From positions 186,001 through 250,000 of the forward strand of contig CAJINV010000015.1 of assembly GCA_905178155.1 (NCBI GenBank): 64,000 bases of DNA, read 5' to 3'. This DNA is from Amoebophrya sp. A120 (Eukaryota; Protista; Dinoflagellata). Within the stretch, counting starts at the first letter, position 1. Each line of letters opens with the position of its first letter. Below, in pieces: positions 1 through 64,000 of the stretch. The notes below the pieces were generated by a model, which did not search any database, was not told the origin of the DNA, and saw only the letters and a program-made list of their open reading frames with translations. A program made the translations under genes and the position numbers.

Positions 1-3000
1 CGAATGTTGTCTCGGTCGTAGTTTTCTGGCCCATTTTCGTAGATGTCCTTGATTCGTTTGGCCGCTCCATTCTCCGGCTGAAACAAAAAGTCTTGAAAAG
101 CGGGCTCCCCGCTCCCGGAGTTTTCCGCCAGTCGCCCCGCTAACGTGACTGCCGCGGAAATTTTCTTCATACTGGGCGTCCTATTCTTCGGAAAACTGGA
201 TGTGGCATAGGCAAAATCCAATTTCTGTTTCAAATTTGTCATGAGCAAATAAGTAGCTGCAAAAGCGACTTTCTACAAACTTATTTCTGTGTTGCACCTT
301 CACCGCAAGCCAATTTGAATTCGCGTGCGGAGAGAGAATAAAAATGTATCTATTCTGGTATGCTTCTCGATGTTCGTCGTCCTAAATATGCATGAGATAG
401 AAACCACTTTGTTATTTTTCTCGCTAAGCCAACAAGTAGTACGCTTAACTAGTAAAACGCTATGCCACATCCAGTATTTTCTGTAGGATATGCTAAACCT
501 CCTGCGCCGACGTCTCGCAGCTCCCCGGCGACGCCAAAGTTCGGCTTTGCCAAGCTGTGCAACAGGTGGTTCGCAACAGCATTCTCGTGCTGCAGACCCA
601 GGTTCAGGTTGGAAAACTGCGTCAAAAACTGGAACTCGATTTTCACCAAGTTCTGCTGCTGCCCCGTCGCCGAGCTGAACAGCATGGTGTTGTGAATCAA
701 AGTATCGAAACAAAAAAGCTGCAAAGACCTCCCACGAAAGAAGGTCTCCGATCATGCGACAAGACAATTGAAGGGAAAGCAATGAGAAGATGCAAATCTT
801 GCACGGATGGGCAAGCTTCAAGGAAAATCTCGGAGAATCTCCTTGGCCCAAGGAGATTCTCCTGGACCCCCAGGAGAATCTCCTCCCTCCCCTCCTCCTC
901 TCTCCTAATTTTCCATTTTTTTCTTCTTTCTTTTTTTTTCTTTTCTTTCTTTTTCCTTCATTTGCTTCCTTTTCCATCATTTGCTTCCTTTTCCTTCATT
1001 TCCTTCTATTTCCTTCACTTCCTCCCGCTGTCTCGCTCCCCTTCTCCCAAGGAGAATCTCCTTGGCAAGGAGATTCTCCCCGAACGTGGGAGAATCTCCT
1101 TGCCAAGGAGATTCTCATAGCCCGCCAGAAAACCACAAAAGCAGAACTTATCGCCCTTGGACGCCCGGGCGCAGTGCAATGCCAGGGGCGCGGCGCCCTC
1201 TGCGGCCCAAGCCGCACCTTCAAGGGCGGGCGCACTGCCCTATGCGGCCCGACGCAGACGCAAGCTCAAGGGCGCAAGGCCCTACGAAGCCTTTCCCGGG
1301 CGCCCTGCTGACTATGGCGCCGCGCTCGAGGGCGGTTTGCCCCATGCAACCTCACATCAACATCAAGTGCGCTGCCCTATAAAGCCCGAAGAACGGCCGC
1401 AATTTCACGGCCATTTTGCGCGATGTGGCCGGTGCTGGGTCGCAACGAAAAGCAAGTCGTCCCTCGACCGCTTTACCGGCAACTCGCCTCTCAGCCGTTC
1501 GCACCACAGCGCATCAGAGGCAGATCACCCCGCACCCGCTCCGAAGCGACCTCAAAGGCAAACCACCCCCACGACCAACTAGAATCGACCTCAAACGAAA
1601 CACAAATCGCGCCAGGCAAGTCGCACAACAAAAGCTCAACCCCAACCAAGGGCCAGGCGCCCGGCAGCCGCTCAGGCGCTGCATGCTTGCGCGCAATTTG
1701 AAAGGGAGGCCACCCCTCAGCAACTCCAGCGTGATTGCAAGAGCAGCGCGCCCCGGGCTGTTCATCTGGCGCGATTTCAAGGGCGCCCCGCCAAATCGGG
1801 CCCTTTTTAACGGCCGGAACAGCAGGCCCTGCAACTTGCGGCGACCGGCACCCCAGCCACACACTGAGATGGTGACTCGGCAGCAAACCCGTGGACCCAC
1901 GACCCGGGGTAGCCCGAGTACAGCACTCCAAATGCCCACACCCAAGAAGCAAAAACGCGCCCCCGTGGAAAGAATTTTCGCCGGCCAGCCGCGAGCGAAC
2001 GCGTATGGCCCTCGGCGTAGGGCAACGAAGAAGAAGGGCACGCCCGCGGCAGGCGCGCGAAAAAAATTGTGTCGGCCACCCGTGCAAGAAACTAGAAGGG
2101 CGCCAGGTCAAAGCAGTGCAGTGAAGCGGAGGACGGCGCGCGCGCAGGCGCGCGCCAAAAAAATATTTGTCGGTCGCCCGTGCGAGATAGAAACTGCAGG
2201 GGTGCCGGCGCGAAGCAGCGAAGGATGGAGCAGTGCGCGCCGCGCGCGAGCCAACTTTTTGTCAGTCAGCCGCCCGCGCAAGAAACGGCGAGGGCGTTGG
2301 CGCGAGGCAGTGCAGGTTGGAGCGCGCGCAGCGCGCGCGCGAGAGAAAATTTTTGCCGGCCAGCCGTGCAAGGTAGAAACCGCCAGGGCGTTGGCGCGAA
2401 GCAACAAAGTATGACGCGCGCGCAGCGCGCGCGGGAAAAAAAAATTTTTTGGTCGCTCGTCCAAAATAGAAACCGCCAGGGCATTGGTGCGAAGCAACGA
2501 AGGAAGGGGCGCGCGCAGCGCGCGCTGCAAACAAAAATTTTTTTGGCCGCCCGCGCAAAATAGAAGCCGCCGGACCGTTGGCGCGAAACAGTGGCGGACG
2601 AAGCGCGCGCAGGGCAGCGCGTGCGCGAGAAAAATTTTTGTCGGGTATCCGTGCAAGATAGAAACTGCGCGTGCGCTGGCACGACGAGTCGAAGGATGCA
2701 GCGCGCGCAGCGCGCGCCCGAAAAAAATCCGCCACCCGCGCAAGAAAGTACAAGGTCACTGGCGCGGCGCAACGAAAAATGGCGCGCGCGCAGCGCGCGC
2801 GATTTTTTTCTGACCACCCGTGTGAGAATAAAACTGCAAGGGCGCTGGCGCGAAGCGACAAGGGATGGGGCACACGCACCGCGCGCGCGAAAAAAATTTT
2901 TGTCGGGCCCCCGTGCAAGAAACTGCAGGGGTGAAGGTGTGGCGCGCACGCAAAAAAATTTTGTGTGGCACCCACGCAGGAAACAAACTGCAAGGCCGCT

Positions 3001-6000
3001 GACGCGAAGCAGAGAAGGGTGCGGCGTGTGTGCGAAAGATTTCTGTCGGGTACCCGTTCAGGCAACTGCAAGGGCGCTGGCGCGAAGCAGCGAAGGGTGG
3101 AGCGCGCGCCGCGCGCGCGAAAGAAGTTTTTTTTTGTCGGCCGGCCGCCCATGCAAGAATGAAAGCGCAAGGGCCTCGGCGCGGCGCAACGCAGTGTGGA
3201 ACGCGCGCGGCACGCGCGCGACTAAAATTTTTGCCGTGCGCACGTGAAAAAAAGCGCAAAGCCGTCGGCGCGAAACAACGACGAGGAACGGAGCACGTGC
3301 TGCGCGCGGGCGGAGGCAATTTTGAAGGTCCGCGAACGAAGGCGCAGGGCCGTCGGTGCGAAGCAACGACGGGCAGAGCGTGAGCGGGTGCGGCGCGCGC
3401 GCGAAATAAAAAAAGCCGTTGCGACCGCGACGGTGCAGGAATTTGAAGCGCAGCGCCGTCGGCGCAAAGAAAGAGGGGACGCAGCGCGCGCTGCTCGTGT
3501 GCGGAGCAAGGTCTTTGCTCTGCAAGGCCCGGGACTACATGCGAGTAGAAAAAGCCGGCTCTTGCTGTCGGCCATGCAAACCGCACAGCCGAACCGGCTA
3601 CAAAGGGACCCACAGGCAGGGGCACGCGCGCAACGCGAAAAGTTCTTTGCTTTTTTGCTAACCATTGGCGACTGGGTCGCGCGCAAAAGTAGAAGCTGTC
3701 GCGTTCTGTTCAGTTTCAAAGACGCAAACACCGAACAAAAGAAATGCCGCCAGCACCGCGCCGCCGGGAGCCAATCAAGAGGAGAGCTGCTGCGCGCCTG
3801 CGCGCGTTTTGTATGTAAGGACGGAGCGAAGCCTGGGCTGATGCTGCAGCAAGGCTGGCGCCACACGGGCGGGGCAGGCGGGCGAAGGGCAGGACCAAAA
3901 AGTCTTCCGCCCCCGGTGCGCAGGCGGGCCGGGGGCTCTTGGTGGCAACGGTCAGCGCGCACGTAGTTTGGCCCACGCTCATCCCTTCATCTTGCACGGG
4001 CGCCAGCGCTCGTCTTGGTCTACTATTTCTTTCTATGCTAATATGAGCATGAAGCTCGACGCCAGTTCATAATCTAAATTTTATGGGGGGGAATCTCCTT
4101 GAGGGAGAATCTCCTTAGGCCGTCGGTAGAATTTCCTTGAGATTTTTTTTTTTCCAACATAATATCAACAAGGGGAAAATAAAATCGGGCATATTTCATT
4201 TCGACTACTACGTCGACAAATTAATGGGAAATGCTTGTTTAAACGATTCATCCAGGCGGCTCCAGAGCTACATCATCGACGCGTGTAATAGAAATGCATT
4301 GGCCGACCGGCATCACAGATGGGTTTGACCAAGAAAATCCATAATCATGCAAAGCCGTATTTTTGCTTTCCAATCCAATAATTTGTCTCGCGCTCGTCCT
4401 TGGGGGTAAAAATCTCGTTCATTTTTCATACAAATTCCGGAAGATGAAATCCTATGAACTGCAAAAGTAGTAACGTACTACGTATAAATAGCATCACACA
4501 TTCTCTCAGGATTAGAAATGGAATTTCTAATGCTGTTTTGCCTTAGGAAGAAGATCTGTCATGCGTGTTTGCAATTAGTACGAGTACGATACTTCTGCAC
4601 TGCATAATTCCTGTTGCTGTAGCTGCCCGTGGGCAGCAGTGGACGACGAAGTAGGTGGATGTTGGCAGAAGTCGCCCGTCTGGTGCGTTGCCTGTCCCTG
4701 GCCCGCCGTACCACTGGCACGACCCGGCGTGCAGAGTAACACCGGCGGGATGATAGCGTTCAAATAGTTCTCGTTGGGCAGTTATCAAGCGTAAAAATGT
4801 CTGGGTCTGGAAGGTTGGAAGTTGTAATGCAGGTTTTCCATGACTCGTTAGGTCTGGAATGCGGGACCTAGCAAGACAGAGTCTGTGAGGTCTCTGTCAT
4901 GCCTCTCCTGCATGAGAAACTCCCTCCCAACTTGGTCGAAAGTGGGCAGCTTTTGGCACTCATGCAACACAGATGTCTGCATGATTCGGATTTAGCATGA
5001 CAAGTTGCAATCTTCCCGACCCAGACATTTTTACATTCAATAGCAGTTGCACGGCGTTCTCGCTGTGGCGAATGCGGTTGAAGTCGCCGAATTTTGCCAG
5101 CTCCTGCAGGGTATCCTGTGCAAAAGTATCGTACTCGTATAAATGCAAGTCTTGCATTACAAATCTTTTTCTTAAGGCAAATCCGCATGACAAATTTTAT
5201 TTCTCATGCTGAGAAAATTTGTAATGCATTTATACGAGTACGATACTTTTGCAGTTCATACAGGGATTCGTCCACGGAGAGCATGCCCTGTACCTCCTCC
5301 TGGTGCTTCTTCGCCTTCAGAAAGTTGGCCAGCACGGGCTTGACGAGGTGCTCAAAGAACCGCACCGCGATCACATTGCCCAGTTGCTGCGAAACCGGCT
5401 TCACCGGCACGTTGCCCGCAGTGGTAAGTGTGGAAGTAGTTGTAGCGGGGTGCGATGCACCTACCGCTGCATTTTTCGCAGGCGTTGACGATGAAGCGAG
5501 GTCTTCCTTCGAGAGAACCGTGTGGAGCTCGTGCGCCACTGGGCCCAGCAGGTCCGTTTTGAAGGATTCGAGCTGGAGCTTTAAACTGTCAAGCTTCTTC
5601 TCATTCTTTTCGGTCTTGATGGACCTGCTCGTGGTAGACGACCTGGAAGTGGAGGTGGCTGCTGCGTCCCGTATCAGCAAGAACAATCCTCCCCCTCGAC
5701 CCAGTGACATGCTGGAGAATGTGTGATGCGGATGTGATGTGTGTAGTACAAGAAGTCACGACTTTGTATTGCAGCAAGCCAGCGGCAGCGGCCTACGCAG
5801 ATAGAGATACTTCGGCTTCGCCTGTGTAGCAACTAGAACTCTGCCCGTTCTTTCGGCATGACAATAAAACAGGAACGGAAGGAAACTCGCGTATAAAATG
5901 CAATGAAAACAAGCAGTCGCTTGTCTTTTATGCAAGAATACCAAGCGACTTTTACTTGCGCCGCACCCAAACAAAGCATGAGTATCACAAGTCGCCTATA

Positions 6001-9000
6001 ATAATTGAGCACCATAGCAGGGCATCAACGAGGAGGGATCATTCTTCCTCATCATATCCCGGCTGCCGTTACCGGTCGCTTGGTGTAGCAGTTCCCGGGC
6101 GGCCGTCAGTTCTTTGTTCACCGCTTGGACCCGTTTTTCGAGAACGGCTTATCGAAAGGAAAGATCCCCCCTCCCCATATCAAAACGGAAATTTGTGATG
6201 CTGAAACGGAAATCTGTAATGCTGATTTGTGGCCACAGATCAGCTTTGTATTGCAGAGAGGCATGGCGGCCAGATCCCCAGGCTAGGTAGGGGCGTATGG
6301 GTCTAGTTGTTCAGCATGGCAAACGGCTCCCCTTTAGGCCTAACAGCATGACAAATCGCTTCCATAATGGGGCGGAAGCTTCTGCCCTTGTCTTCTTGCA
6401 AGACAGATGTGATTTGTAACCTCAAATCCGGAACACAAATTTTTGTTGACATACCTTTTCAATATGGGGAGGGGGAGTTTTTCCTTTCAATACGGCTTGG
6501 CCCTTCTTTTCCAGCAGCTCGTACACTTTCGCGCGCAGCGACTCCTATCAAATGCAAAAATGTCTGGGTCTGGAAGGATGCAAGGTTTGTCAGGCACATT
6601 CTGCATGACTCCTGAACCTGATCGATGTGTGATGCATGCCCCAGCATCACAGATTTTGTGAGGGCTTCCTTATGTCTTTACCGCATGAGAAATGCCCTCT
6701 CGCCGTGGCAAAAACTGGACCTCTTTTGCTCTTCATGCAATACAGAGCTTTGTAGAATCCAAGTGCAGCATCACAAGTTGTAGCCTTCCAGACCCAGACA
6801 TATTTGCAATTCATAACTCCACGGCCGTCACAAATTCCGCCTCGGTATAGCCCGCAAGCCGCCCGTTGGTCGTGTCGTACGCATCGAATTTCGTGTTCGC
6901 TTTCGGTTGCAGTCGCTCCGCCCGGTTCATCTCGTCCCGTCCTCCCGGCTCCCCGTCGTCGGCTTCATTTACCTTTTCCATGGAAATCAGCTCCGCATGC
7001 TCCCCTGCGAAGATGTGCTGTGCGAACTGCTCCTGCAAGTCGGTCCACATCTCCAGCGTGAGCTCTATCCTGAGTAAAAATGTCCCCACCCCAGAGTTGT
7101 CATGCAGATCTGCATGCCGAAAAAGTTTCTCATGCGGACTTCCATGCGAGCCATTTTCTATTCGCGTTGTGGAATTTGTGACGCTAGAATCAGCATGCTA
7201 CGCGAGATCTGTGATGCTTCTGAACTAGCGAAACAGGATTACACTAGGTGGGCAAACTTGTCATGCCAAACAACCAAAGCTGGTTGATTTGTCTAGCAGA
7301 TTTCCCACCATGCCTCTGGTGTGGGCGGCACGTTTTTAATCAGGATAGGCTCCGTTTCTTTCTTTTCCTCCTCGACCACTTGTTGGGCTGCCGTCGAGGT
7401 GCCGGTTGTTGTAGTACCCGAGGACGCGGCACCACCACCCGGACTTTCACTTTGCTGCTGCAGTTTCTTCAGGTCTTTCTTCAATTCCCGGACTTTTTCG
7501 TGGATCTTGTCCTTTCCCAAGGTCACGATCTGCCGCAACTGACTGGCGGCGGCGTTCCCGCCGAAGGGGTACAGCCACCGCCCAAAGCTGGACAACAGTT
7601 GCTCGAGTTCCGTTTTCAATTCTTGAAACTGCTTCCTTTCGCTCTCTATCAAAGGCAAAAGTGTCTGGGTCTGGAAGATTCTGAGACTTGTCATGCACGT
7701 ATTGCATGGGCCATGATGTCTGTGATGCATGCCCTAGCATCACAGACTTTTTGAGGGCTTCGTGATACCTATTCCGCATGACAAATGCCCTCTCCGCTTA
7801 GCCAAAATTGCATTCCCTTTGCTGGTCATGCAATACAGATTTTTTTGGAATCCAAATGCAGCATCAGAAGTTCGGATTCTTCCTGACCCAGACATTTTTA
7901 CATTTTATACTCTCCAGCAGACTGCGCTGCTCCTCGTACGCCTCCTGTTTGTCCATCACTCTCTTGATGCTTGAATGGGCTTTGGGATTGAAGCTTGTGT
8001 CCTCGGTTTTCAGCGATTTTGCCAAAGGGCCGCTGAGGCTGGCCAGGGTTTGCTCGGCGACGACGAGGATATGTTTCTTATTCTTTTCCTTATATTTCTC
8101 CTTAGTTTCAGGCGACTTTAGCGATTCAATTTCTGCAGTATATCGCTCATGCATCTTCTTCCGCACATCCTCGACCAGATCGGTGAAATCATCACGCTCA
8201 GCTGCGACCTCGAAGTCCTTGAGCGGCGAATCCCTCCAGATCGTGTCGATGTCGGTCTTTAAGACAGTTAGTTCGTATTTGTGGGGATTATTTCTGGCGC
8301 TAGACCACTCCTCGGCCAGCCTGGTTTTCAATTGCGTGATCGTCACCCTCAACTTTTGGGCCTTGACGCCGGACACCTCGTTTCGCAAGATTTGCTTCTG
8401 TTCGTCGATCTTTGCACTCAGCTCCGCCGGCAGCTTTTCCTTCAGCTCGACGTCCAAGTGCCCGATCTGTTTTTTCAGCCTCCTTAACTGCTTGTTCACT
8501 CGGTCATCCAGCACCTGCTGCACCGGCTCGGCCAGTTTCGCACGAAAATACGTCAGCAGTTTTCCCGGGCGGAAGAGCTTGGTGATTTTTGCGGCGGGCA
8601 TAGAAGTTGTAGTACTTCTACCCAGCTGCCCACTAACAACTTGTTCTTCTCCAGTCGTACTAGTTCTGGCGAGAACGAAGGCCTCTCCGCCGGACAGCTC
8701 GTGCGGCTTTAACAGCGCCGCCTCGTTCAACTGGAATGTGGTTGCGCTGGTGTCCGTGTAGTCGCGCAAAAGGGCGTCAACGTCGCAGCTGTGGACCTTT
8801 TCCAGCTGCTCCAGCCGCTGCGACCACTCCACCGAAGCTCTAGAAGTTGTACCAAACACGTGTTTCAGGTTCAGTGCCAGAGAATTATCCAGCAATTGCT
8901 CCACAAACCCGCGCATTTCCGTCATTCGCGCAGAGCCCCGGAGGTCACGCGGGTTCGCGGCTGTGTGATCCACGTAGTATTCTTTGCCGATCGACTGCTG

Positions 9001-57000: not shown

Positions 57001-60000
57001 GCCGCTTGAAAATTCCATCGGTCAACTGAATGCCGAAGTCGCTTGTCTGCTCCCAAGGCCGCGTGTACGTCTCGTCGTTATTTCTGCGTCTAGCAATGGG
57101 TAACACGGTGTCGAGCACGCGCTGCACGTTCTGATCATGGGGCCACACATATCAGAATGAAAAATCCCCCCTCCCCATATTGAAAAGGTATGCTCCCAAG
57201 AATTTGTGTTGCGGATTTGAGGTCACAAATCACATCTGTCTTGCAAGAAGACAAGGGCAGAAGCTTCCGCCCCATTATGGAAGCGGTTTGTCATGCTGTT
57301 GGGCCTAAAGGGGGGCCGTTTGCCATGCTGAGCTACTTACTAGACCCATACGCCCCTACCTAGCCAGGGGATCTGGCCGCAGTGTTAGGGCGGAAAAATC
57401 GGCAAATAGCATCATTTTTGCAAGCGCACTTTTTGGGGGGGCAAAAAAATTATGGCTATTGGGGGTGTCGCTACTGCTTTTTTTCCTGTTGGCCATTTAG
57501 ATGCTGGCGCCGCTCTTCGTTGTCACGTTCCGCCATCCGGCCCTCCCCTTTTTCCAATAGAGCCGCAGCATTTTGTTGAAGTTGCATAGGCCTGCGGCCC
57601 CCCGGCGCGGGAAGCCGCGCCCCCTCTCCGGCATCCAATTCCGTACGCGCCCAGACATCTTCGCATCTTCCCTTTACGGCCAGATATTGAGAATGCGGAC
57701 GCGCCAGCAGTCAAATGCTTCCGGGGGGGTGCCGAAGGGGGGGGGGTAAGGGGGTGCGCTTGGGCTGCCTCTGGGCTACCATTTTGGGGCACGCAAAATC
57801 GGCAGTTTCTAATGGGGATTAGGGGGTCGGCATAGGCTACCGAAAGGGTACCCGGAAGGGGTACCCGGAAGGGGTGTCCGAAGGGGGCAAAAATGCACCC
57901 CCCTGACCACCCCCCTTGCCGGGTTCCCTCTTCCTCGTGGCGAGCGTCCTCGTTGTGGTCCGGTCCCGGAGGTGGCCCAGCCACTTCTCGAAGAGCGGGC
58001 CTACTCAACATTGCCGGGCCATCTGAGCGACAACGCACAGCGCGAAGGCGCTGCCGCCTGTTTCGTGTCTTGCTATGAAGGCCTTTTGAAAGCCGAGCTA
58101 TCATGTTTCTCGTGGAAAAGATGAAGTGATGCTTTACTTCTGTTGATTTCCAGGTAGTTGACTCCCTGACAAAAGAAAAAAAAATACCCCCCCAAAGTGT
58201 GAGCTGACAAAAATGATGCTATTTGCCGATTTTTCCGCCCTAACAGTGCCTCTCTGCAATACAAAGCTGATTTGTGGTCACAAATCAGCATCACAAATTT
58301 CAGTTTTGATATGGGGAGGGGGGATTTTTCCTCTCAATAACACATACTGCCGCTTCTTTCCCTCGAGGTTGGTTTCCGCCTTGTTATATGAAATGTAAAA
58401 ATGTCTGGGTCTGGAAGATTCTGAGACTTGTCATGCACGTTTTGCATAAGCCATGAGGTCTGGAATGCGAGACCTAGCATGACAGATTCTGTGAGATCCG
58501 TATAATGCCTATCCTGCATGAGAAACTTCCTCTCAACTTGGTCAAAAGTGGACAGCTTTTGGCATTGATGCAACACAGAGTTTTGGCACGATCCAGAATT
58601 AGCATCACAAGTTGCAACCTTCCAGACCCAGACATTTTTACAATGCATATGTTACCGAGGTCGAGTTGCGTTGGTTGATAGGGAAGGTGGGATCTGTACA
58701 GGACGTGCTCTTTCTCGAGTTCCTGATCGATAGTCTGATCCCGTTCCCGGCTGACGAGCGGGTCGGCCATGGCTCTAGGCCGCTGGTCGCCGTGGACCGC
58801 ACCAGAGGCCGCCGTGGTTCCACTTGCTCCAGGACCGCCACCCGTGCTGCCGCCCATGGTTTCCTGCGCCGGAGGGGCCTCTTGCTGCAGCTCTAGTTCC
58901 ACCCGAGCCACCTGTTGCGCGGCTGCCAGTTGGGTTCTTTCTTGGGCCTTGCTTTTCTTCTTCGGCCTCGCCTTAGATTTGGAAGAAGCAGGGCGATTAT
59001 TCCGTCCGCTGACCATCTCGGAGTAGTCAATTCCAGCTGCAGGAGCGGTAGGCGCCACAGCAATTTCCACATCAGGCGCCACGTCAGCCATAGTTGTTTC
59101 TTGTGCGGATACAACTTGCTGCGCGCTAGCCGCCGGAGCGGCGGCTCCTGGAGAATGCGTGGACCGCGGTGCCGGGGCAACACTGGAAGACGGCGCTGAA
59201 CCACTTCCCGAGGGGTTGTTGGCCGCCACCTCGCCCTGAACTACGTTCTGCCCGGCCGACCCAAGCCTCTGAGCCGCCTGCTCGTCGTTCGTGCCTGCCG
59301 TGCTTTTCCAACGCATGAAGAAGCGCGCCATGATGTACTCCACATTCCACGATCAAATGCAAAAATGTGTGGGTGCGGAAGATTGCAGGAGTTTGTCATG
59401 CATCTTCTGGATAACGCAGCTGGTCTCTAATGCACGCAAAAGCATTACAGGTTTTGCGCAGGCCTCCTGATGCCTATCCCGCATGAGAAATTCCCTATTT
59501 GCGTAGCAAGAAATGGGAAGCTTTTGGTGCTTATGCAACACAAATTTTTGCCTCTTCCAGAAATCGCATGACAAGATCCAACTCTTCCACGCCCAGACAT
59601 ATTTGCAACTGATATCCACTCAAAGCTGCCAATCAAGCTGCGCCCTATCTCGGTCTTCCTGACGTAGTTCAAAACATACTTCCTGAACCCGTCCTCGTCA
59701 ACAAAGTCAGCCAAAACCTCGCCGGCACACTTTTCGAATTTAGCTGGGTCGGCCATACATTTTTCGAGATTGTCCTGCTGCTTCCGGTAGAATTCACGGG
59801 CGTGAAAGAAGTCTTTCGCAGACGTGCTTGCCGACTGGAACTGCTGCTTCAAGTTTTGCACTGCAGCCCCTACCTCCTGGAAAAAACCGGTGACATCCTG
59901 GATGATTTCGGTCCCGGCGGTCACTATGTTCCCCAAGGGGTTGCACTGCGACGTCACATCCTCCTCGTCATACAAGCTTCCGTATGTTTGAGCAGAGGTG

Positions 60001-63000
60001 GTTTTTTTCTTCTGCTCTTCCCGTTTCCAGTTGTATTCGGGGTCAATCCAGAAAGCGTAGTTTCGCAGCTTCCGCTTGTCCATCTCGTGGATCCTTCGGG
60101 GTATCAAGTGCAAAAGTGTCTGGGTCTGGAAAGGTGTAAGCTCGTCATGCAGATTTTCCATGACCCATGAGGTCTGGAGTGCAGGACTTAGCATGACAGA
60201 CTCTGCGAGGTCTCTGCCATGCCTATCCTGCATGCTAAACTCCCTTCCATCTTGGTCAAAAGTGGAAAGCTTTTGGCACTCATGCAACACAGATTTTTGC
60301 ATGCTTCAGATTTACCATGACAAGTTGCAGCCACCTTCCAGACCCAGACATTTTTGCATTTGATACGGGGTTCCAACGCACCAATGAGTTCGATTTCGGG
60401 AATTTCGCCCTTGACCTTGTTATCTCCTGCGCTCTGGCTCCTGCATTCCAATTGCATGTCCGTCATAGACAACAAATCGGCGAGACGGACGAATTCTCGT
60501 TCCAGCCCCGCTTCGAGTTTGGTTCTCTTTCGCGGTTTGTACATGTCATCGCCGTCATTTTGCACGATGTGCCAGAACGTGGCGTCTCTGGTTTCTTCCG
60601 GTAAACTGTCCGGGTCTTCATAGTCTTGCTCGTCTATGAGTGCAGGATATCCCACGAAAAAAGTGTTACAGTTACACATTTGTAGTCAATTCAGCAACAC
60701 AAATTTCTCTGCATGAGAGAGAAAACTTGTAATGCAGAAATCCTACGGGAAAACACTTATGAAACGAGGCTCCTATGCATATCCGGCATGACAGAGCTTG
60801 TCTGTCTTGCTTGGCCTGCAACACAGTGTGTAACTGTAACACTTTTTTCTTGCGATACAGGACTCGCGAAATCCACTGCGCCGAATCCGTCCTGATTTGT
60901 AATGGCCTCGACCATATCAAATGTAAAAATGTCTGGGTCTGGAAGAATGCAACTTGTGATGCTGCATTTGGATTCCAGAAGAATGTGTATTGCATGAGTA
61001 CCAAAAGGAATGCAATTTTTGCTACGCGGAGAGGGCATTTGTCCTGCGGAATAGGCACCAAGAAGCTCTCAAGAAATCTGTGATGCTAGGGCATGCATCA
61101 CAGACATCAGGGCTCATGCAAAAGGTGCATGACAAGGGTCAGAATCTTCCAGACCTAGACACTTTTACAGTTGATAGACCATGTTATTCTGCAGCTCTTC
61201 CTCCAGTTGGATATACGCTGCTTTCAATAAACCATTCCTCGAATGATTCATCCGCTGGGTGTTCTGAGCAGACGACCCGTCTGCAGTGGTCCGCCCCGCA
61301 TCCACATCGTCATCGATGTTTTGGAGCAGCCGCAACTTTGCGTACCGGTAAAAATCCTGATCGTTGACCGACGGGCGGTCAAGCAAGACGTTCTTTTGAT
61401 TCGACAGAATCTGACTGCTCTTATTTCTACTCCTCCCATGTCTGTTCAAATTCATGCTCTTCGTCTCATCGGCCATGTGCTCCGTCACTTCCTTAAACAT
61501 GTAGTCGGCAACAAGGTTCACTTGCTTCACGATCTCCGTTTGTCCCGTTTCTCCTGGCAGCTGCAACTCCGCCAATTTAGTTTCGATCGGAATGTGGTCG
61601 TGCAACTTGCCAGTGATGAACTCCGCAGCGTCCAATAACTCCACGTCCCGCACTGCTTCGGCACCGGTGGAAATCTCGTTTTGTTTCTGTCGCTGCTGTT
61701 TCATCTTCGCTAGAACTTGTTTCTGAGTTCTAGAATGACCAGAAGCGGCAGAGGAAGAAGTTGTAGCCCCCGCGCCGGTCATCGTCTCTTCGTGGTAGTT
61801 ATTTTCTTGGAATTCCTTCAGAATTTCCGGTAAGGAAGTCGGCTCCCGTGGCTTTCCCGGCTCATCTTTCCCGAATCGCTTTTCTTGCACTTTCTTGAAC
61901 ACGCAGTGAAGCCACTCAGCGGCGGCCACCCTCGCTGGTCCGTCGACCGGATTCTGCTGGAGGAAGATATGTTCTTGGCTCGTCGCACCTATCCTATGTA
62001 AAAACGTCCCCACCCCATAGTTGTATATGCAAATCAGCATGGTGAGCGTGAAGATGTCTCTCATGCGGAGCCCCATGAGAAGCGTTTGCTACAACTCTTG
62101 TTTCAGAATTTGTCATCCTCCAATCAGCATGATGCGCTAGGTCTGTGATGCTGCTGAACTACTAGCCAAACAGGATCACACTACGAGGCCGAACTTGTCA
62201 TGCGCAACGGCCAAAGCTTGTTGATTTGTCTAGCAGATCTCCCATCTTGACTATGGGGTGGGGACGTTTTTCCTCTCAATAGCACCGGAGAAAAAGTCCG
62301 TGGAGAGGAACTGCTGGTGCTTGCCTTCTTTCATCAAACTCCTCCGTGTTATCAATTGCAAAAGTGTAGTCTGGGTCTGGAAGAATGCAAGATTTGTGCT
62401 GCAGGTTTTCCATGACCCATGAGGTCTGGAATGCGAGACCCGGCATGACAGATTCTTTGAGGTCTCTATGCCTGCCCTGCGTGAGAAGCTCCCTCTCAAC
62501 TTGGTCAAAAGCGGACACCTTTTGGTACTCACGCAACACAGATTTTCGTTTCATTCAGATTCAGCATGACAAGTTCTAATCTTCCAGACCCAGACATTTT
62601 GACAGTTGATACGTGTCACGAAGTTGAACGCATCAGTCGTAATTTTGTCGACGCTGTGGTCCGTCGTCGTCCCCATTCCCGCCAGCGGATTTCTCGCGGC
62701 CAGCGAATTCCAGAACGTGGCCTGCCTCACCGCGAAGAAGCGGATAATCGTAGAGAGCAAGGCGTTCTTGCTGAAGGAGCTGGTATGCTGCTGTTGCGAC
62801 CGGGTTTCGATCCAATATTTCGAGACCCGCAGCTCATCCACGGTAAACTTCTGCGCACTTTGCATGTCCGACTGCCGGCTGCGCTGATGTGCTCCTGCTT
62901 GCTGCGCTGCCGCGCGCTGTCTCTGCTGACTTGTAGGTGTGGAAGGCTGATGTGCAGCGGCGGCGGGGACACCGACAGCAGCTGTGGATGTTGTAGCAAA

Positions 63001-63753
63001 CGAATTTGCTCCTGAAGCATTCTCTTCGACTTCCTATCGTAAGAAAAAACTGTTTCACTGTAAGGATTTTGCAAGTTTTGCATCACAAGTTTGCTCTGCA
63101 TGACAGCGAAAATTTGCAATGCGCGATTTCCAAGGGAAAACACCGCTAAAAAGCCACTGTCTTGCATGTTTAGCAAGACAAACATTTCTGAGATACATTT
63201 TCTGCATTACAAGCTTACAGTGAAACAGATTTTTCTTGCGATACTTCCTCCCCGTTCTCCAACAGCACGTCCGGAAAGTTTTTCGCGTCGCAATATGCAA
63301 GAAAAAAAGTGTGTAAGTGTGACTCTGTCATGCAGAACATGCAACAGAGATACACCTGTCATGCCAGACAACCATGAAGTCCTCTTTTCACTTGTGTATT
63401 CCCCTACAAACCACGCATGACAGGTTGTTTCTGTCATGTAGAGCAAATTTGTGATGCTGTCAGCCAGAGAGAGTTACACTAACACAGTTTTTTTCTCGGA
63501 TACGCAGGTTTCCAATTTCAGTTCCAACAACCCCTCCTTGCTGTTGGATAATTGGAATTGCTGCACTAAGTTCAGCGTTTCCAGAAACACCGACTGCACG
63601 ATGGGCTGCAAAACAGCAATCGTGGCGTCATGTTGCTCTTGCCCCACCCCTGCGTCCTGTGCCAATGAAGCCACGTGCTTTCTGTAGAACTTTTCGAAAT
63701 CATTGACCACGTTGGGCACGGCAGAAGGAGCTGTTGTTACTGCACCTACGGGC
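1..63753 (-). CDS. Giant multi-exon gene (partial at both ends, ~106 exons, ~10,180 codons in window) encoding a SecA-DEAD-like ATPase domain protein
   Basis: I traced each junction by hand. Deleting element + one 5-bp direct repeat (DR) gives in-frame joins, e.g. SVDES|LQELAK, IRARRE|QYRLQ, NPAPM|LLRDF, VST|NLAGRG, GGL|HVEL. Summed exon length 30,549 nt matches the end phases. The weakest joins are introns 182-490, 703-4430 and 50916-51085. Confidence 0.8.
182..490. mobile_element. Introner-like intron, singleton family J
   Basis: IR tattcttcggaaaactggatgtggcatag / ctatgccacatccagtattttctgtaggata; DR decayed (cgtcc/tgcta); element+5 nt restores frame GGLA|PSMKK. Confidence 0.7.
831..1116. 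repeat. Palindromic GGAGAATCTCC/GGAGATTCTCC cluster around a polypyrimidine tract
   Basis: e.g. ggagaatctccttggcaaggagattctcc at ~1051; motif recurs at ~4088-4118. Confidence 0.8.
1950..3650. repeat. Degenerate ~90-95 bp CpG-rich tandem satellite
   Basis: Recurring gcgcgcgcg-aaaaaattttt-gtcgg..gtgcaagatagaaactgc..ggcgcgaagca at ~2180, 2276, 2366, 2459, 2553, 2651, 2738, 2820... Confidence 0.85.
4453..4606. mobile_element. Introner family B
   Basis: TIR aaaagtatcgtactcgta-like; DR aatcc/attcc. Confidence 0.85.
4783..5042. mobile_element. Introner family A (45 copies; TIR TAT-N7-aaaatgtctgggtctggaa)
   Basis: DR gcagt; join AVQL|PNEN. Confidence 0.9.
5112..5260. mobile_element. Introner family B (13 copies; TIR TAT-N7-aaaagtatcgtactcgta)
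   Basis: DR caggg; join DESL|QELA. Confidence 0.9.
5672..6056. mobile_element. Degenerate family C-like introner
   Basis: DR tcccg; eroded IR; join NGSR|DAAAT. Confidence 0.75.
6150..6492. mobile_element. Introner family C (11 copies; TIR TAT-N7-aaaaatccccctccccatat)
   Basis: DR cggct. Confidence 0.9.
6546..6815. mobile_element. Introner family A
   Basis: DR actcc. Confidence 0.9.
7066..7347. mobile_element. Introner family D (16 copies; TIR TAT-N7-aaaaacgtccccaccccagagt)
   Basis: DR agctc/ggctc. Confidence 0.9.
7647..7909. mobile_element. Introner family A
   Basis: DR ctctc. Confidence 0.9.
7910..10579 (-). CDS. Largest exon of giant gene (coiled-coil/low-complexity)
   Basis: 904-aa ORF 7864..10578 bounded by introners; in frame on both sides. 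Confidence 0.85.
10580..10869. mobile_element. Introner family D
   Basis: DR acatc. Confidence 0.9.
11160..11425. mobile_element. Introner family A
   Basis: DR gcgcc. Confidence 0.9.
11487..11810. mobile_element. Introner family C
   Basis: DR gaaga/gacga. Confidence 0.9.
11895..12233. mobile_element. Introner family A with ~80-bp internal insert
   Basis: DR agtag. Confidence 0.9.
12603..12847. mobile_element. Introner family A
   Basis: DR aaccg/atccg. Confidence 0.85.
12899..13160. mobile_element. Introner family A (TGT left end)
   Basis: DR tgctt/ggctt. Confidence 0.85.
13736..13885. mobile_element. Introner family B
   Basis: DR aagcc/aagct. Confidence 0.9.
13886..14919 (-). CDS. Exon of giant gene
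   Basis: Core of ORF 13825..14967; in-frame joins EEEE|GVEQ and SSF|NSK. Confidence 0.8.
14920..15181. mobile_element. Introner family A
   Basis: DR tcttc. Confidence 0.9.
15230..15448. mobile_element. Introner family G (3 copies; TIR tatgacagtgcacaactccc)
   Basis: DR tgttg/tgtta. Confidence 0.9.
15681..15906. mobile_element. Introner family E (9 copies, heterogeneous; TIR TAT-N7-aaaaa(g/c)tgt)
   Basis: DR ctgtc. Confidence 0.85.
15967..16294. mobile_element. Introner family C
   Basis: DR tctgc. Confidence 0.9.
17027..17960. repeat. 96-bp tandem array (~9.7 copies), each unit a stem-loop
   Basis: Unit starts 17027, 17123, 17219 ... 17891; ccctaggtca-tga-cgcggggac-cga-gtccccgcg-c-tgacctaggg. 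Confidence 0.95.
18050..18326. repeat. GGGGTGTGTC(C/T) minisatellite followed by inverted copies
   Basis: ggggtgtgtccggggtgtgtctggggtatg... then catacccc/gacacacccc/gaacatacccc. Confidence 0.8.
18780..19041. mobile_element. Introner family A
   Basis: DR tttgc. Confidence 0.9.
19126..19407. mobile_element. Introner family D
   Basis: DR gaatc/gaatt. Confidence 0.9.
19514..19725. mobile_element. Introner family E
   Basis: DR tctgt/tttgt. Confidence 0.9.
20094..20264. mobile_element. Introner family F (2 copies; TIR tatcccacagaaaaaagctggcagggca)
   Basis: DR agcca. Confidence 0.9.
20319..20585. mobile_element. Introner family A
   Basis: DR tgctg. Confidence 0.9.
20643..20925. mobile_element. 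Introner family D
   Basis: DR ccgtc. Confidence 0.9.
20992..21242. mobile_element. Introner family A
   Basis: DR acggt. Confidence 0.9.
21354..21605. mobile_element. Introner family A
   Basis: DR ttcct. Confidence 0.9.
21640..21918. mobile_element. Introner family D
   Basis: DR aggtt. Confidence 0.9.
21964..22192. mobile_element. Introner family G
   Basis: DR ctacc. Confidence 0.9.
22225..22486. mobile_element. Introner family A
   Basis: DR gcacg. Confidence 0.9.
22563..22892. mobile_element. Introner family C
   Basis: DR agttt. Confidence 0.9.
22972..23230. mobile_element. Introner family A
   Basis: DR ctcga. Confidence 0.9.
23287..23571. mobile_element. Introner family D
   Basis: DR gtcgt. 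Confidence 0.9.
23630..23790. mobile_element. Introner family B
   Basis: DR tggtg. Confidence 0.9.
23837..24159. mobile_element. Introner family C
   Basis: DR tgctc. Confidence 0.9.
24268..24503. mobile_element. Introner family G
   Basis: DR tcatg. Confidence 0.9.
24833..25116. mobile_element. Introner family A
   Basis: DR gctgg/gttgg. Confidence 0.9.
25426..25684. mobile_element. Introner family A (GTA right end)
   Basis: DR cgtgg. Confidence 0.85.
25713..25862. mobile_element. Introner family B
   Basis: DR gactc. Confidence 0.9.
25863..27405 (-). CDS. Exon of giant gene
   Basis: Core of 550-aa ORF 25837..27489; in-frame joins. Confidence 0.85.
27406..27670. mobile_element. Introner family A
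   Basis: DR aggtg. Confidence 0.9.
27854..28012. mobile_element. Introner family B
   Basis: DR gctcg. Confidence 0.85.
28058..28319. mobile_element. Introner family A
   Basis: DR gttga. Confidence 0.9.
28459..28735. mobile_element. Introner family A
   Basis: DR agtgg/agtgc. Confidence 0.9.
28788..29049. mobile_element. Introner family A
   Basis: DR tcccg. Confidence 0.9.
29217..29478. mobile_element. Introner family A
   Basis: DR agttg. Confidence 0.9.
29533..29687. mobile_element. Introner family B
   Basis: DR tttgc. Confidence 0.9.
29868..30189. mobile_element. Introner family C
   Basis: DR ggcat. Confidence 0.9.
30242..30507. mobile_element. Introner family A
   Basis: DR ccttg/tcttg. 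Confidence 0.9.
30624..31019. mobile_element. Degenerate family A introner with foreign interior
   Basis: DR aggaa; join SGVS|SPEF. Confidence 0.8.
30692..30736. repeat. Perfect 22-bp-arm palindrome with telomere-like TTTAGG motifs
   Basis: ctaaatcctaaaccccaaactg-t-cagtttggggtttaggatttag. Confidence 0.95.
31381..31702. mobile_element. Introner family C (ACA right end)
   Basis: DR ctctg. Confidence 0.9.
32418..32673. mobile_element. Introner family A
   Basis: DR agttg. Confidence 0.9.
33020..33281. mobile_element. Introner family A
   Basis: DR gcgca. Confidence 0.9.
33368..33624. mobile_element. Introner family A
   Basis: DR acttc/actcc. Confidence 0.9.
33765..34018. mobile_element. Introner family A
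   Basis: DR gagtt. Confidence 0.9.
34089..34352. mobile_element. Introner family A (TGT left end)
   Basis: DR gcctg. Confidence 0.85.
34405..34613. mobile_element. Introner family E
   Basis: DR gatgc. Confidence 0.9.
34982..35310. mobile_element. Introner family A, diverged, with internal insert
   Basis: DR cgtgc. Confidence 0.85.
35388..35537. mobile_element. Introner family B (CAT left end)
   Basis: DR ttgtg/ttgcg. Confidence 0.85.
35538..36969 (-). CDS. Exon of giant gene
   Basis: Core of 475-aa ORF 35490..36917; in-frame joins. Confidence 0.85.
36970..37275. mobile_element. Introner family H (2 copies; TIR TAT-N7-aaaaatgcccccacccc)
   Basis: DR gaaag; close copy at 56459. Confidence 0.9.
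37321..37582. mobile_element. Introner family A
   Basis: DR cgtca; reverse-complement near-copy of 22225-22486. Confidence 0.9.
37632..37893. mobile_element. Introner family A
   Basis: DR tgctg. Confidence 0.9.
38088..38298. mobile_element. Introner family E
   Basis: DR ggtcc/gatcc. Confidence 0.85.
38443..38597. mobile_element. Introner family B
   Basis: DR attag/attcg. Confidence 0.9.
39000..39310. mobile_element. Introner family C
   Basis: DR agacg. Confidence 0.9.
39688..39966. mobile_element. Introner family D
   Basis: DR atggt. Confidence 0.9.
39967..41101 (-). CDS. Exon of giant gene
   Basis: Core of 414-aa ORF 39834..41078; in-frame joins. Confidence 0.85.
41102..41380. mobile_element. 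Introner family D
   Basis: DR gcggt. Confidence 0.9.
41648..41822. mobile_element. Introner family F
   Basis: DR tgccg. Confidence 0.9.
42485..42656. mobile_element. Introner family B
   Basis: DR tcggc/tcgtc. Confidence 0.85.
42714..42959. mobile_element. Introner family E (diverged)
   Basis: DR aaatt/aaatg. Confidence 0.8.
43052..43318. mobile_element. Introner family A
   Basis: DR ttctc. Confidence 0.9.
43387..43638. mobile_element. Introner family A
   Basis: DR gcttc. Confidence 0.9.
44020..44188. mobile_element. Introner family B
   Basis: DR cgcaa. Confidence 0.85.
44670..44877. mobile_element. Introner family E
   Basis: DR tcagc. Confidence 0.85.
44878..45975 (-). CDS. Exon of giant gene
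   Basis: Core of 375-aa ORF 44849..45976; in-frame joins. Confidence 0.85.
45976..46285. mobile_element. Introner family C
   Basis: DR tttca. Confidence 0.9.
46347..46599. mobile_element. Introner family A
   Basis: DR gcacc. Confidence 0.9.
46829..47107. mobile_element. Introner family D with A-type outer end
   Basis: DR atacc; starts tatcaaatgtaaaaacgtaccc. Confidence 0.9.
47382..47660. mobile_element. Introner family D
   Basis: DR gtacc. Confidence 0.9.
47710..47965. mobile_element. Introner family A
   Basis: DR tggtg. Confidence 0.9.
47966..49084 (-). CDS. Exon: SecA motif VI region plus Gly/Ala-rich hydrophobic segment
   Basis: HVELT..QALGRTSRQG ... VGIVGGGVLAGAVVGVLIAGLF. Confidence 0.85.
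48990..55780 (-). CDS. SecA-like SF2 helicase/ATPase domain (split across ~13 exons of the giant gene)
   Basis: Ordered SecA motifs: KLHNIQLLSL; QVATGEGKT (~55105-55131); GKKVDSMTSSPVLAKRDAE; CYLSDVTVGDPADFMFDALK; DEVDMML (~52556); DYVV..WSDGIHQILE; FFRRYKFLYGVTGT; VSTNLAGRGTD; GGLHV; QALGRTSRQG. Confidence 0.9.
49085..49237. mobile_element. Introner family B (inside GGL|HV motif)
   Basis: DR caaac. Confidence 0.9.
49302..49566. mobile_element. Introner family A (inside ST|NLAGRG motif)
   Basis: DR ttgtg. Confidence 0.9.
49567..50307 (-). CDS. Exon: SecA-like WSDGIHQ and GVTGT motifs
   Basis: ENVDYVV..HWSDGIHQILE..FFRRYKFLYGVTGTLG. Confidence 0.9.
50308..50559. mobile_element. Introner family A
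   Basis: DR gtacg. Confidence 0.9.
50915..51086 (-). other. Intron lacking a recognisable TIR; possibly canonical GT-AG
   Basis: Minus strand GTAGTACG...GGTTATAG gives in-frame PDL|IVHVL; removing 50911-51085 also keeps frame. Confidence 0.6.
51750..52017. mobile_element. Introner family A
   Basis: DR tcgcg. Confidence 0.9.
52070..52358. mobile_element. Introner family D
   Basis: DR agcaa. Confidence 0.9.
52359..52881 (-). CDS. Exon: Walker B (DEVD)
   Basis: FDNVALADEVDMMLVND. Confidence 0.9.
52882..53093. mobile_element. Introner singleton family K
   Basis: IR TAT-N7-aaaaagtt(c/t)gtcgc; DR catgt/tatgt. Confidence 0.8.
53395..53670. mobile_element. Introner family D
   Basis: DR aatgc. 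Confidence 0.9.
53927..54212. mobile_element. Introner family D
   Basis: DR tcggc. Confidence 0.9.
54351..54509. mobile_element. Introner family B
   Basis: DR tcacg. Confidence 0.9.
54615..54894. mobile_element. Introner family D
   Basis: DR atagc. Confidence 0.9.
54895..55404 (-). CDS. Exon: Walker A (TGEGKT)
   Basis: GVLLQVATGEGKT..GKKVD..LAKRDAE. Confidence 0.9.
55405..55670. mobile_element. Introner family A
   Basis: DR tcacc. Confidence 0.9.
56123..56406. mobile_element. Introner family D
   Basis: DR atttt. Confidence 0.9.
56459..56764. mobile_element. Introner family H
   Basis: DR caggc. Confidence 0.9.
57150..58339. mobile_element. Family C introner carrying a nested element
   Basis: DR acaca; family C halves 57150-57384 and 58244-58339. 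Confidence 0.9.
57385..58243. mobile_element. Nested non-autonomous TIR element (MITE-like), 859 bp
   Basis: Perfect 36-bp TIR ttagggcggaaaaatcggcaaatagcatcatttttg; 5-bp TSD cagtg; empty site ggccgcagtgcc seen in the family C copy at ~24058. Confidence 0.95.
58387..58649. mobile_element. Introner family A
   Basis: DR tgtta. Confidence 0.9.
58650..59350 (-). CDS. Exon of giant gene (low complexity)
   Basis: Core of ORF 58474..59343; in-frame joins. Confidence 0.8.
59351..59614. mobile_element. Introner family A (GAT left end, variant TIR)
   Basis: DR tccac. Confidence 0.85.
60102..60365. mobile_element. Introner family A
   Basis: DR cgggg. Confidence 0.9.
60648..60857. mobile_element. Introner family E
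   Basis: TIR aaaaaagtgttacagttacaca; DR cagga. Confidence 0.9.
60915..61176. mobile_element. Introner family A
   Basis: DR gacca. Confidence 0.9.
61177..61989 (-). CDS. Exon of giant gene
   Basis: Core of ORF 61165..62076; in-frame joins. Confidence 0.8.
61990..62281. mobile_element. Introner family D
   Basis: DR gcacc. Confidence 0.9.
62350..62611. mobile_element. Introner family A
   Basis: DR cgtgt. Confidence 0.9.
63035..63243. mobile_element. Introner family E
   Basis: DR cttcc. Confidence 0.9.
63294..63502. mobile_element. Introner family E
   Basis: DR cgcaa/cgcag. Confidence 0.9.
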
Positions 63754-64000
63754 TATGGCGATGTCAATTATCTCAACAGAAACGTTCTCAAAAGTTTTTG
63801 GATAGCTACTTGAGATGCCTACTTATGTAGCTACTTTCTATGTGCTACAGTAGCTAGCTTGAGTGCATGCATTAGATAGATCAGCGAAATTATAGGTAAG
63901 GCCATGGTCCGCCAATCTGTTGCTTCCCGGACTCTTCGAAGGTTGGTTTGACCTCACAGAGGGCACCTCTGAGGGGTACCTCTGAGGGTACCTCCAGAGG
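63754..64000. other. Probable start of another intron/insert running off the window
   Basis: The minus-strand frame closes at a TAT boundary with no start codon between it and the exon; AT-rich, then gagggtacctct repeats. Confidence 0.45.

Follow-up and report, generated by a model that had tools for sequence, protein, structure and literature searches.

Introner elements of Amoebophrya and the locus examined

Genes of the dinoflagellate Amoebophrya sp. A120 are interrupted by introner elements, a class for which 29,850 repeated introns with RNA support have been described (Farhat et al. 2021; PMC7789003). The elements have an inverted repeat (IR) that consists of TAT, seven nucleotides and AAA (TAT-N7-AAA) and are flanked by a direct repeat (DR) of 3-5 nt, and there are tens of such introns per gene (PMC12130899). 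Here we analyze 64,000 nt of A120 DNA (contig CAJINV010000015.1, positions 186,001 to 250,000; this whole stretch is termed the window), in which 105 such elements reside in one giant gene. Each element is very probably removed from the RNA together with five bases, and the cut probably occurs in a fixed register, one base before the 5' TAT and four bases past the 3' ATA. The elements and their removal are already known, and the fixed register is new.

In the available parts of their report, Farhat et al. leave the removal mechanism open (PMC7789003). The top non-canonical motifs in their Table S4 have exclusively NT- starts in A120 and TT- starts in A25. Their Table S6 gives 83 of 89 spliceosomal proteins for A120, with U2AF65 and U2AF35 each listed once and with snRNP27 and U1 small nuclear RNA (snRNA) undetected. 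The accessible portions of PMC12005148, PMC11453091, PMC12787238 and bioRxiv 2022.06.08.495308 contain nothing further on the removal mechanism. A statement of the fixed register was not found in the literature consulted, which was mostly open-access; Farhat figures S19-S25, on DR and IR positions, may already imply it.

Anatomy of the elements

The 105 elements comprise 32,790 nt, or 51% of the window (Table 1). An automatic scan for TAT...ATA, a 5-bp DR (one copy on each side of the element) and paired ends called 92 of them, and 13 were added manually (unpaired ends, reading frame). Ends of TAT and ATA are both present in 99/105 elements, with a single variant end in the other six. The DR is perfect in 82 elements and carries one mismatch in 21, two in one (50853-51133) and four in one (182-490). 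Pairs of a DR with a terminal inverted repeat (TIR) number 90 in the real sequence and 0 in five Markov shuffles, and TAT-N7-AAA has 205 matches in the window versus 21.9 expected. In 97-98% of elements, TAT and ATA are base-paired; positions 4-7 then form a loose loop, with a long stem beyond it; the three full elements that were folded have paired ends, with z of -2.8 to -4.7. DR composition shows no bias toward splice-site bases.

Median element length is 262 nt, and both orientations are present. Ten families account for 93 of the elements, the four largest having 41 (about 260 nt; orientation split 25:16), 16 (about 280 nt), 13 (about 150 nt) and 8 (about 325 nt) members and the other six being small; 12 elements are singletons. 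Families reach depths of 10^4-10^5 in the DNA-like runs described below. The interiors of most elements contain short GCATGACAAA / TTTGTCATGC-type repeats on both strands, in every large family, which are possible transposase-binding or branch-site motifs.

When each element plus 5 nt is removed, a single minus-strand open reading frame (ORF) of 10,145 codons results, starting at 63752. Other removal offsets yield at most 3,399 codons, except for +8, which preserves the same frame. If retained, 64/105 elements would shift the frame.

Window elements are A120-type introner elements. They share with the published class the TAT-N7-AAA IR, a 5-nt DR, repeated families, lengths of about 240-260 nt, removal without GT-AG (as judged from contigs whose RNA nature is a guess) and a number of tens per gene (PMC7789003; PMC12130899). 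There is no anatomical difference in the available descriptions; what is added here is that one register fits six sites and works without a DR. A first-pass annotation, made from the letters of the window alone, had reported 105 elements filling about half of it, their TAT/ATA ends, the counts of perfect, singly mismatched and decayed DRs, and restoration of the frame by removal of element + 5 nt. All of these hold, as does the link that it drew to the A120 elements and their open removal mechanism.

Probable removal at the RNA level

Two stretches of the window, holding 64 elements, were compared with contigs assembled from sequencing runs. Runs X1 and X2 represent one sample, whose RNA nature is the software's guess (no run listed as carrying the sequence is recorded as RNA); that there is a single RNA-like sample tells against the conclusions below. 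Runs X5 and X6 come from a second sample, which is DNA-like in its behavior and possibly the source of the window. Among the matches listed, element + 5 nt is exactly missing from X1/X2 at 19/64 elements, seven as direct joints and 12 through exact gap sums (180, 31, 134 and 382 nt), and nothing in these matches contradicts such removal. An exact GT-AG option exists at 0/21 elements checked. Two elements, at 7647 and 20643, offer an in-frame GT...AG that the contigs leave unused in favor of element + 5 nt, and a nearby AG is therefore ignored.

By comparison, contigs of X5/X6 read continuously across the borders between exons and elements at single-copy depth (7876-10609, 13856-14945) and pass through two whole elements (1-839, 5234-6177). 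Element 182-490 is present in X5/X6 contigs and missing from X2. There are no exon-exon joints in X5/X6 among 15 of 264 joints listed. These data leave little doubt that the elements are removed at the RNA level, in keeping with the structure-guided RNA removal that the first-pass annotation had put forward.

That annotation had also raised excision at the DNA level, resembling that of ciliate internal eliminated sequences. Precise excision from DNA in the expressing stage, with mRNA copied from element-free templates, would explain why removal gives back the pre-insertion sequence exactly, and the counter-evidence comes from one DNA-like sample whose life stage is not on record. Moreover, a symmetric staggered cut is excluded by only three sites (182, 19514 and 24833), a result expected about 1 in 4 times by chance. 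However, eliminated sequences of the ciliate type should be absent from transcribed DNA, whereas the elements are retained in the DNA-like contigs, a finding that argues against this explanation. In addition, an X2 contig of depth 2.8 still spans the element-exon border at 16191-16393, as would be expected of DNA or unspliced RNA, and the register described below goes by the sense strand whichever way an element is oriented. DNA excision thus appears very improbable.

A hairpin with direct repeats is a known setting for artefacts of reverse-transcriptase template switching. Because the evidence consists of assembled contigs only, the joined forms could in principle be such switches at DRs. However, 64/105 elements break the frame if kept, and removal is required by conserved motifs, which span junctions 50308, 49302 and 49085 free of indels in comparisons with paralogues and distant homologues. 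The joint at 182-490 has no repeat on which to switch, and depth in X1 and X2 is 0 over 1111-4440, which takes in most of element 703-4430 (evidence from depth, as distinct from base-level junctions). We regard this artefact as scarcely credible.

Raw RNA runs X9-X11 matched only element paralogues (90-95%) and covered no exon, and so offer no evidence either way on removal. At 28056-28136, 20156-20187 and 21878-21918, their reads have element ends joined to other sequence. These joins suggest that related elements are retained in some transcripts elsewhere.

Register of the cut

At a DR whose two copies differ, a contig reveals which copy stays. Mismatched DRs number 17 in the compared stretches, and six are resolved among the matches listed; the paralogue alignments span no mismatch that informs on the register. 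One register fits all six: the intron is N + TAT...ATA + 4 nt on the sense strand (Table 1). Sense DR position 1 derives from the upstream copy at 13736, as does position 4 at 19514 and 24833, and position 5 does not derive from the upstream copy at 7066 (in both X1 and X2) or 12899. At 182-490 the allowed registers are {1,2}, such that a cut one base further fits as well. DNA-like contigs verify the genomic bases at 7348, 13161 and 13886-90 and on both flanks of 182-490. Under independent random cuts, the chance of exactly the 1+4 register is 0.021. Since the register holds at 182-490, a DR is dispensable; this tells against joining guided by homology as well as template switching.

It could be instead that element + 5 nt is removed from RNA by a cut that slides inside the DR from site to site, the six sites agreeing by chance. 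Six sites are few, and the probability of some common register by chance is 0.20. In a codon-likeness test at 54 mismatch sites, 33/54 favored the register (p=0.067), and a cut after position 2 ties. The Fig. 3 legend of Farhat et al. calls splice positions variable or unknown relative to the hairpin (PMC7789003). These points weigh against a fixed register. On the other side are the exact-register probability, the fit at 182-490 without a DR, and the invariance of U+2, which was predicted from the fixed register and then found (see below). A sliding cut therefore seems improbable, and we consider the fixed 1+4 register, resting on these six sites, likely to be correct. A stop-codon test of the register revealed no stops. 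Spacer indels in related loci (DNA only) occur three times at the sense 3' end, twice at the 5' end and once in an unoriented element; because both ends are affected, they do not separate the models.

Sequence signals at the inferred borders

A pattern scan produced 148 stretches, and the 80 of 148 listed are all on contigs with prefix JACKZZ01. Examination of 145 related loci provided 387 further elements, whose best identity to window copies is 72-96%. The 5-bp DR is perfect in 288 of these, and other DR lengths are rare. Elements were oriented with a coding model trained on the window, which gave mixed strands in 4/45 loci. A set of 318 oriented elements from the window and related loci was assembled after exclusion of 166/387 that were unoriented and of 8/326 oriented elements with more than two DR mismatches (including 182-490).

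A GT..AG register is possible in only 6/105 window elements and a G[TCA]..AG register in 15/105. At the 1+4 register, the +1 base is A in 33, T in 26, C in 26 and G in 20 elements. The 5' end nevertheless has a consistent core in the 318-element set, with U+2 in 318/318, A+3 in 316 and U+4 in 311. Drift at the rate of the DRs would be expected to have changed U+2 at least 6.5 times, versus 0 observed (p=0.0014). The 3' pairing partner of U+2 varies in 5/318. Thus, the first-pass statement that there are no consistent GT/AG ends stands for the dinucleotides, but intron position +2 is U in 105/105 elements at the contig-supported register, and "without splice signals" is probably too strong a description of the 5' end.

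Ordinary introns in related contigs were taken from ab initio GT-AG predictions in loci L009-L068, of which 54 of 178 were kept (124 that were longer than 400 nt or element-like were dropped). Their predicted donors favor GTA (24/54, p=4e-5), with T following GTA in 10/24 versus a 21% background (p=0.015), and GTATAG is the commonest donor. The TAT of the elements therefore corresponds to positions +2 to +4 in the most frequent predicted donor, and a fixed register gives an intron start of N-U-A-U resembling predicted G-U-A-U donors. At positions -25..-5, the predicted acceptors of these ordinary introns are rich in A and not in pyrimidines (A 182, T 125, C 122, G 75).

The sense strand has 297 G-U and 273 A-C pairs, so that G-U pairs are not in excess (p=0.34). 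An apparent A-to-G excess in the 5' A-run did not hold up in this comparison, and no polypyrimidine tract is therefore claimed.

Possible mechanism of removal

To an altered major spliceosome whose 3' cut is measured from the hairpin we assign an even chance. The elements would be non-autonomous transposon copies with 5-bp target duplications, and would stay in the DNA. The transcript would lose the element plus exactly five bases, likely one before the 5' TAT and four past the 3' ATA. The terminal repeat may supply U+2, A+3 and U+4 of a G-U-A-U-type donor in which G+1 is relaxed, the hairpin may bring the ends together, and the 3' cut would be set by distance and not by AG. Lariat chemistry and the factors involved would be part of this proposal. 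The five removed bases (1+4) match the duplication in length, and any insertion would thus be undone precisely, whichever way it is oriented.

A more specific and more tentative version is that the major spliceosome dropped G+1 and the 3' AG for most introns and reads N-U-A (N-UAU for A120-type, U-UARR for A25-type elements), and cuts at the 3' end four bases beyond the base of the hairpin, a ruler whose length suits the 5-bp duplication made by the transposase. Most spliceosomal proteins are present in A120, with snRNP27 and U1 snRNA undetected; in yeasts, loss of SNRNP27K accompanies +4 U (PMC10581693), and in Fritillaria the spliceosome can remove introns with TIRs, target site duplications (TSDs) and non-canonical ends (PMC11282704; PMC13326754).

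Several observations count against a spliceosomal explanation. Canonical GU/AG ends are lacking, since at the 1+4 register G+1 occurs in 20/105 elements and a 3' AG in 9/105. The +1/-1 pair is unbiased, with G/G in 17/318, and branch-point-like YTRAY in the last 70 nt occurs in 164/318 on the sense strand and 164/318 on the antisense strand, without strand bias. The asymmetry between U+2 and its 3' partner (0 vs 5) is not significant (p=0.06). Pairing of TAT with ATA in nearly all elements means that the donor could be hidden, and conservation of TAT would also be expected from a transposase alone. The donor comparison is weakened by the fact that the ordinary donors are predicted ab initio, with no RNA support. 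The Table S4 starts are given low weight because an aligner that prefers partial GT/AG matches could create them.

The same lack of G+1, AG, +1/-1 pairing and branch-point bias is consistent with RNA-level removal at the 1+4 register by a hairpin endonuclease and an RNA ligase outside the spliceosome, either as a precise form of SOS splicing or as a euglenid-like process. Elements that fold with paired ends and work in both orientations would suit such enzymes, for which SOS splicing (PMC12779559) and euglenid introns (PMC11282704) are precedents. However, SOS splicing is imprecise (PMC12779559), whereas 19/19 resolved junctions are exact (contigs would hide minor forms) and most elements would shift the frame if kept. 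The absence of a sense-strand G-U excess also speaks against a nuclease and ligase, as does the 3.7-kb element 703-4430, which has almost no terminal pairing and is nonetheless missing from RNA-like contigs. Finally, the start of the cut agrees with the predicted donor core. This alternative is the main rival, possible but less likely than an altered spliceosome.

The removal of about 30,000 elements per genome is an open problem for which published borders were left undefined. A fixed register leads to sharp predictions, namely lariats that start one base before TAT, as opposed to circles or nuclease ends. It also serves as an annotation rule that sets the amino acids at junctions. If the altered spliceosome is responsible, catalysis would dispense with both terminal G residues, which are regarded as necessary for the second step in current structures. 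If it is not, the cell would possess a precise cousin of SOS splicing that handles 105 introns in one mRNA.

Table 1. Features of the 64,000-nt window
Feature	Coordinates	Strand	Remarks
TAT...ATA elements 1-21	182-490, 703-4430, 4453-4606, 4783-5042, 5112-5260, 5672-6056, 6150-6492, 6546-6815, 7066-7347, 7647-7909, 10580-10869, 11160-11425, 11487-11810, 11895-12233, 12603-12847, 12899-13160, 13736-13885, 14920-15181, 15230-15448, 15681-15906, 15967-16294	.	
TAT...ATA elements 22-42	16653-18489, 18780-19041, 19126-19407, 19514-19725, 20094-20264, 20319-20585, 20643-20925, 20992-21242, 21354-21605, 21640-21918, 21964-22192, 22225-22486, 22563-22892, 22972-23230, 23287-23571, 23630-23790, 23837-24159, 24268-24503, 24833-25116, 25426-25684, 25713-25862	.	
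TAT...ATA elements 43-63	27406-27670, 27854-28012, 28058-28319, 28459-28735, 28788-29049, 29217-29478, 29533-29687, 29868-30189, 30242-30507, 30624-31019, 31381-31702, 32418-32673, 33020-33281, 33368-33624, 33765-34018, 34089-34352, 34405-34613, 34982-35310, 35388-35537, 36970-37275, 37321-37582	.	
TAT...ATA elements 64-84	37632-37893, 38088-38298, 38443-38597, 39000-39310, 39688-39966, 41102-41380, 41648-41822, 42485-42656, 42714-42959, 43052-43318, 43387-43638, 44020-44188, 44670-44877, 45976-46285, 46347-46599, 46829-47107, 47382-47660, 47710-47965, 49085-49237, 49302-49566, 50308-50559	.	
TAT...ATA elements 85-105	50853-51133, 51750-52017, 52070-52358, 52882-53093, 53395-53670, 53927-54212, 54351-54509, 54615-54894, 55405-55670, 56123-56406, 56459-56764, 57150-58339, 58387-58649, 59351-59614, 60102-60365, 60648-60857, 60915-61176, 61990-62281, 62350-62611, 63035-63243, 63294-63502	.	
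Removed stretch at 182-490 (1 nt + element + 4 nt), decayed DR (4/5 mismatched)	178-491	-	X2 joins 492 to 177; X5/X6 unbroken over 1-839
Predicted intron, element 7066-7347; sense DR position 5 mismatched	7062-7348	-	Upstream base 7348 lost; X1, X2 pieces start at 7349; 382-nt gap exact
Predicted intron, element 12899-13160; sense DR position 5 mismatched	12895-13161	-	Base 13161 lost; X1 piece starts at 13162; genomic base confirmed by DNA-like contig
Predicted intron, element 13736-13885; sense DR position 1 mismatched	13732-13886	-	Upstream copy stays; X1 joint 13886 to 13730, no extra letters
Predicted intron, element 19514-19725; sense DR position 4 mismatched	19510-19726	-	Upstream copy stays; X1 piece 19726-20088, 0 other letters; 180-nt gap exact
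Predicted intron, element 24833-25116; sense DR position 4 mismatched	24829-25117	-	Upstream copy stays; X1 piece 25116-25412, 0 other letters
Element with in-frame GT...AG option (element + 2), not used by contigs	7647-7909	-	Direct joint 7910 to 7641 in X1, X2
Element with in-frame GT...AG option (element + 2), not used by contigs	20643-20925	-	Joint 20637>20926 skips 288
3.7-kb element, weak TIR, internal 94-nt tandem array	703-4430	.	Missing from RNA-like contigs
Family-A-like element enlarged by insert with 96-nt x 9.8 tandem array	16653-18489	.	Sequence only, outside contig-compared stretches
Nested 859-nt TIR element, TTAGG start, own 5-bp CAGTG duplication	57385-58243	.	Inside element 57150-58339
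Host gene, one open frame once 105 elements are removed	1-63752	-	10,145 codons, runs off window start
Exon with SecA DEAD-like domain (SecA_DEAD, PF07517)	54898-55398	-	E 2.4e-10
Exon with SecA_PP_bind (PF01043)	49568-50302	-	E 4.2e-6

Unusual elements and nested insertions

The array of element 703-4430 is degenerate, and palindromic GGAGAATCTCC-type repeats lie near both ends of the element; a 17-nt exon comes next. Its depth in X5 is 200-300 versus about 45, or about 5-6x single-copy. The nested element at 57385-58243 has long, near-perfect TIRs, and no second such element is found among the 145 related loci. TTA followed by two purines is the IR start of the A25 type, here located inside an A120-type element.

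In element 25426-25684, the sense 5' end is replaced by a 13-nt copy of the opposite flank (window 25413-25689; end TAC, spacer 8 nt). Element + 5 nt (264 nt) is nonetheless absent from the contig, which suggests that the 5' cut tracks the U-A motif and not the spacing from the A-run.

Short copies are too small to be judged for an internal transposase, and the ORFs of 703-4430 look repetitive. No autonomous copy was found among the 145 related loci; a 4.2-kb candidate in locus L057 was rejected as several exons between two short elements. Element TIRs had no match in viral contigs, and an Rfam scan returned no match.

The host gene

A Pfam scan of 41 exons revealed two domains above the cut-off, both from SecA and both in the N-terminal quarter; the rest have no Pfam match above it. 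The best homologues of exon 49568-50302 are named Amoebophrya sp. A120 and are 58-60% identical. The encoded protein is giant (>10,000 aa), with a SecA DEAD-like helicase core (47967-55398) and paralogues named A120. Upstream, in 63753-64000, the ORF is closed by a TAG that lies at what may be an ordinary AG acceptor or a decayed element end, with CTAAT upstream. The gene probably extends past the window.

Comparison with other transposon-derived introns

The available parts of the reports on four other systems allow comparison with the window. Non-canonical introns of Fritillaria borealis derive from miniature inverted-repeat transposable elements and have TIRs, TSDs and non-GT/AG ends, like those studied here, and are removed by an adapted major spliceosome (PMC11282704; PMC13326754). 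However, their ends are mostly AG-AC or AG-AT and U2AF is duplicated, whereas the first base and the last two bases of the window's introns are free and U2AF65/35 are single in A120. Introner-like elements with TIRs and TSDs also form introns in Polarella and Symbiodinium, some in both orientations; in these, G[T/C/A] and AG are supplied by the TSD or the element, which constrains the target sites (bioRxiv 10.1101/2020.10.14.339549), in contrast to the DRs of the window, which have no such bias.

SOS splicing, in C. elegans and human cells, resembles the window in that DNA transposons are removed from mRNA without GU-AG, a process triggered there by TIR pairing (PMC12779559). Unlike the exact junctions resolved here, SOS splicing cuts at several sites and leaves indels; it depends on RTCB, AKAP17A and CAAP1 (PMC12779559). 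Nonconventional introns of euglenids have hairpin-joined ends, TSD-like repeats, fixed asymmetric overhangs and an unsolved mechanism, all reminiscent of the window, and their excised RNA has been shown to be circular (PMC11282704). Pairing in the euglenid introns starts at +4/-6 with pyrimidine|purine borders (PMC11282704), whereas in the window it starts at +2/-5 with no border preference.

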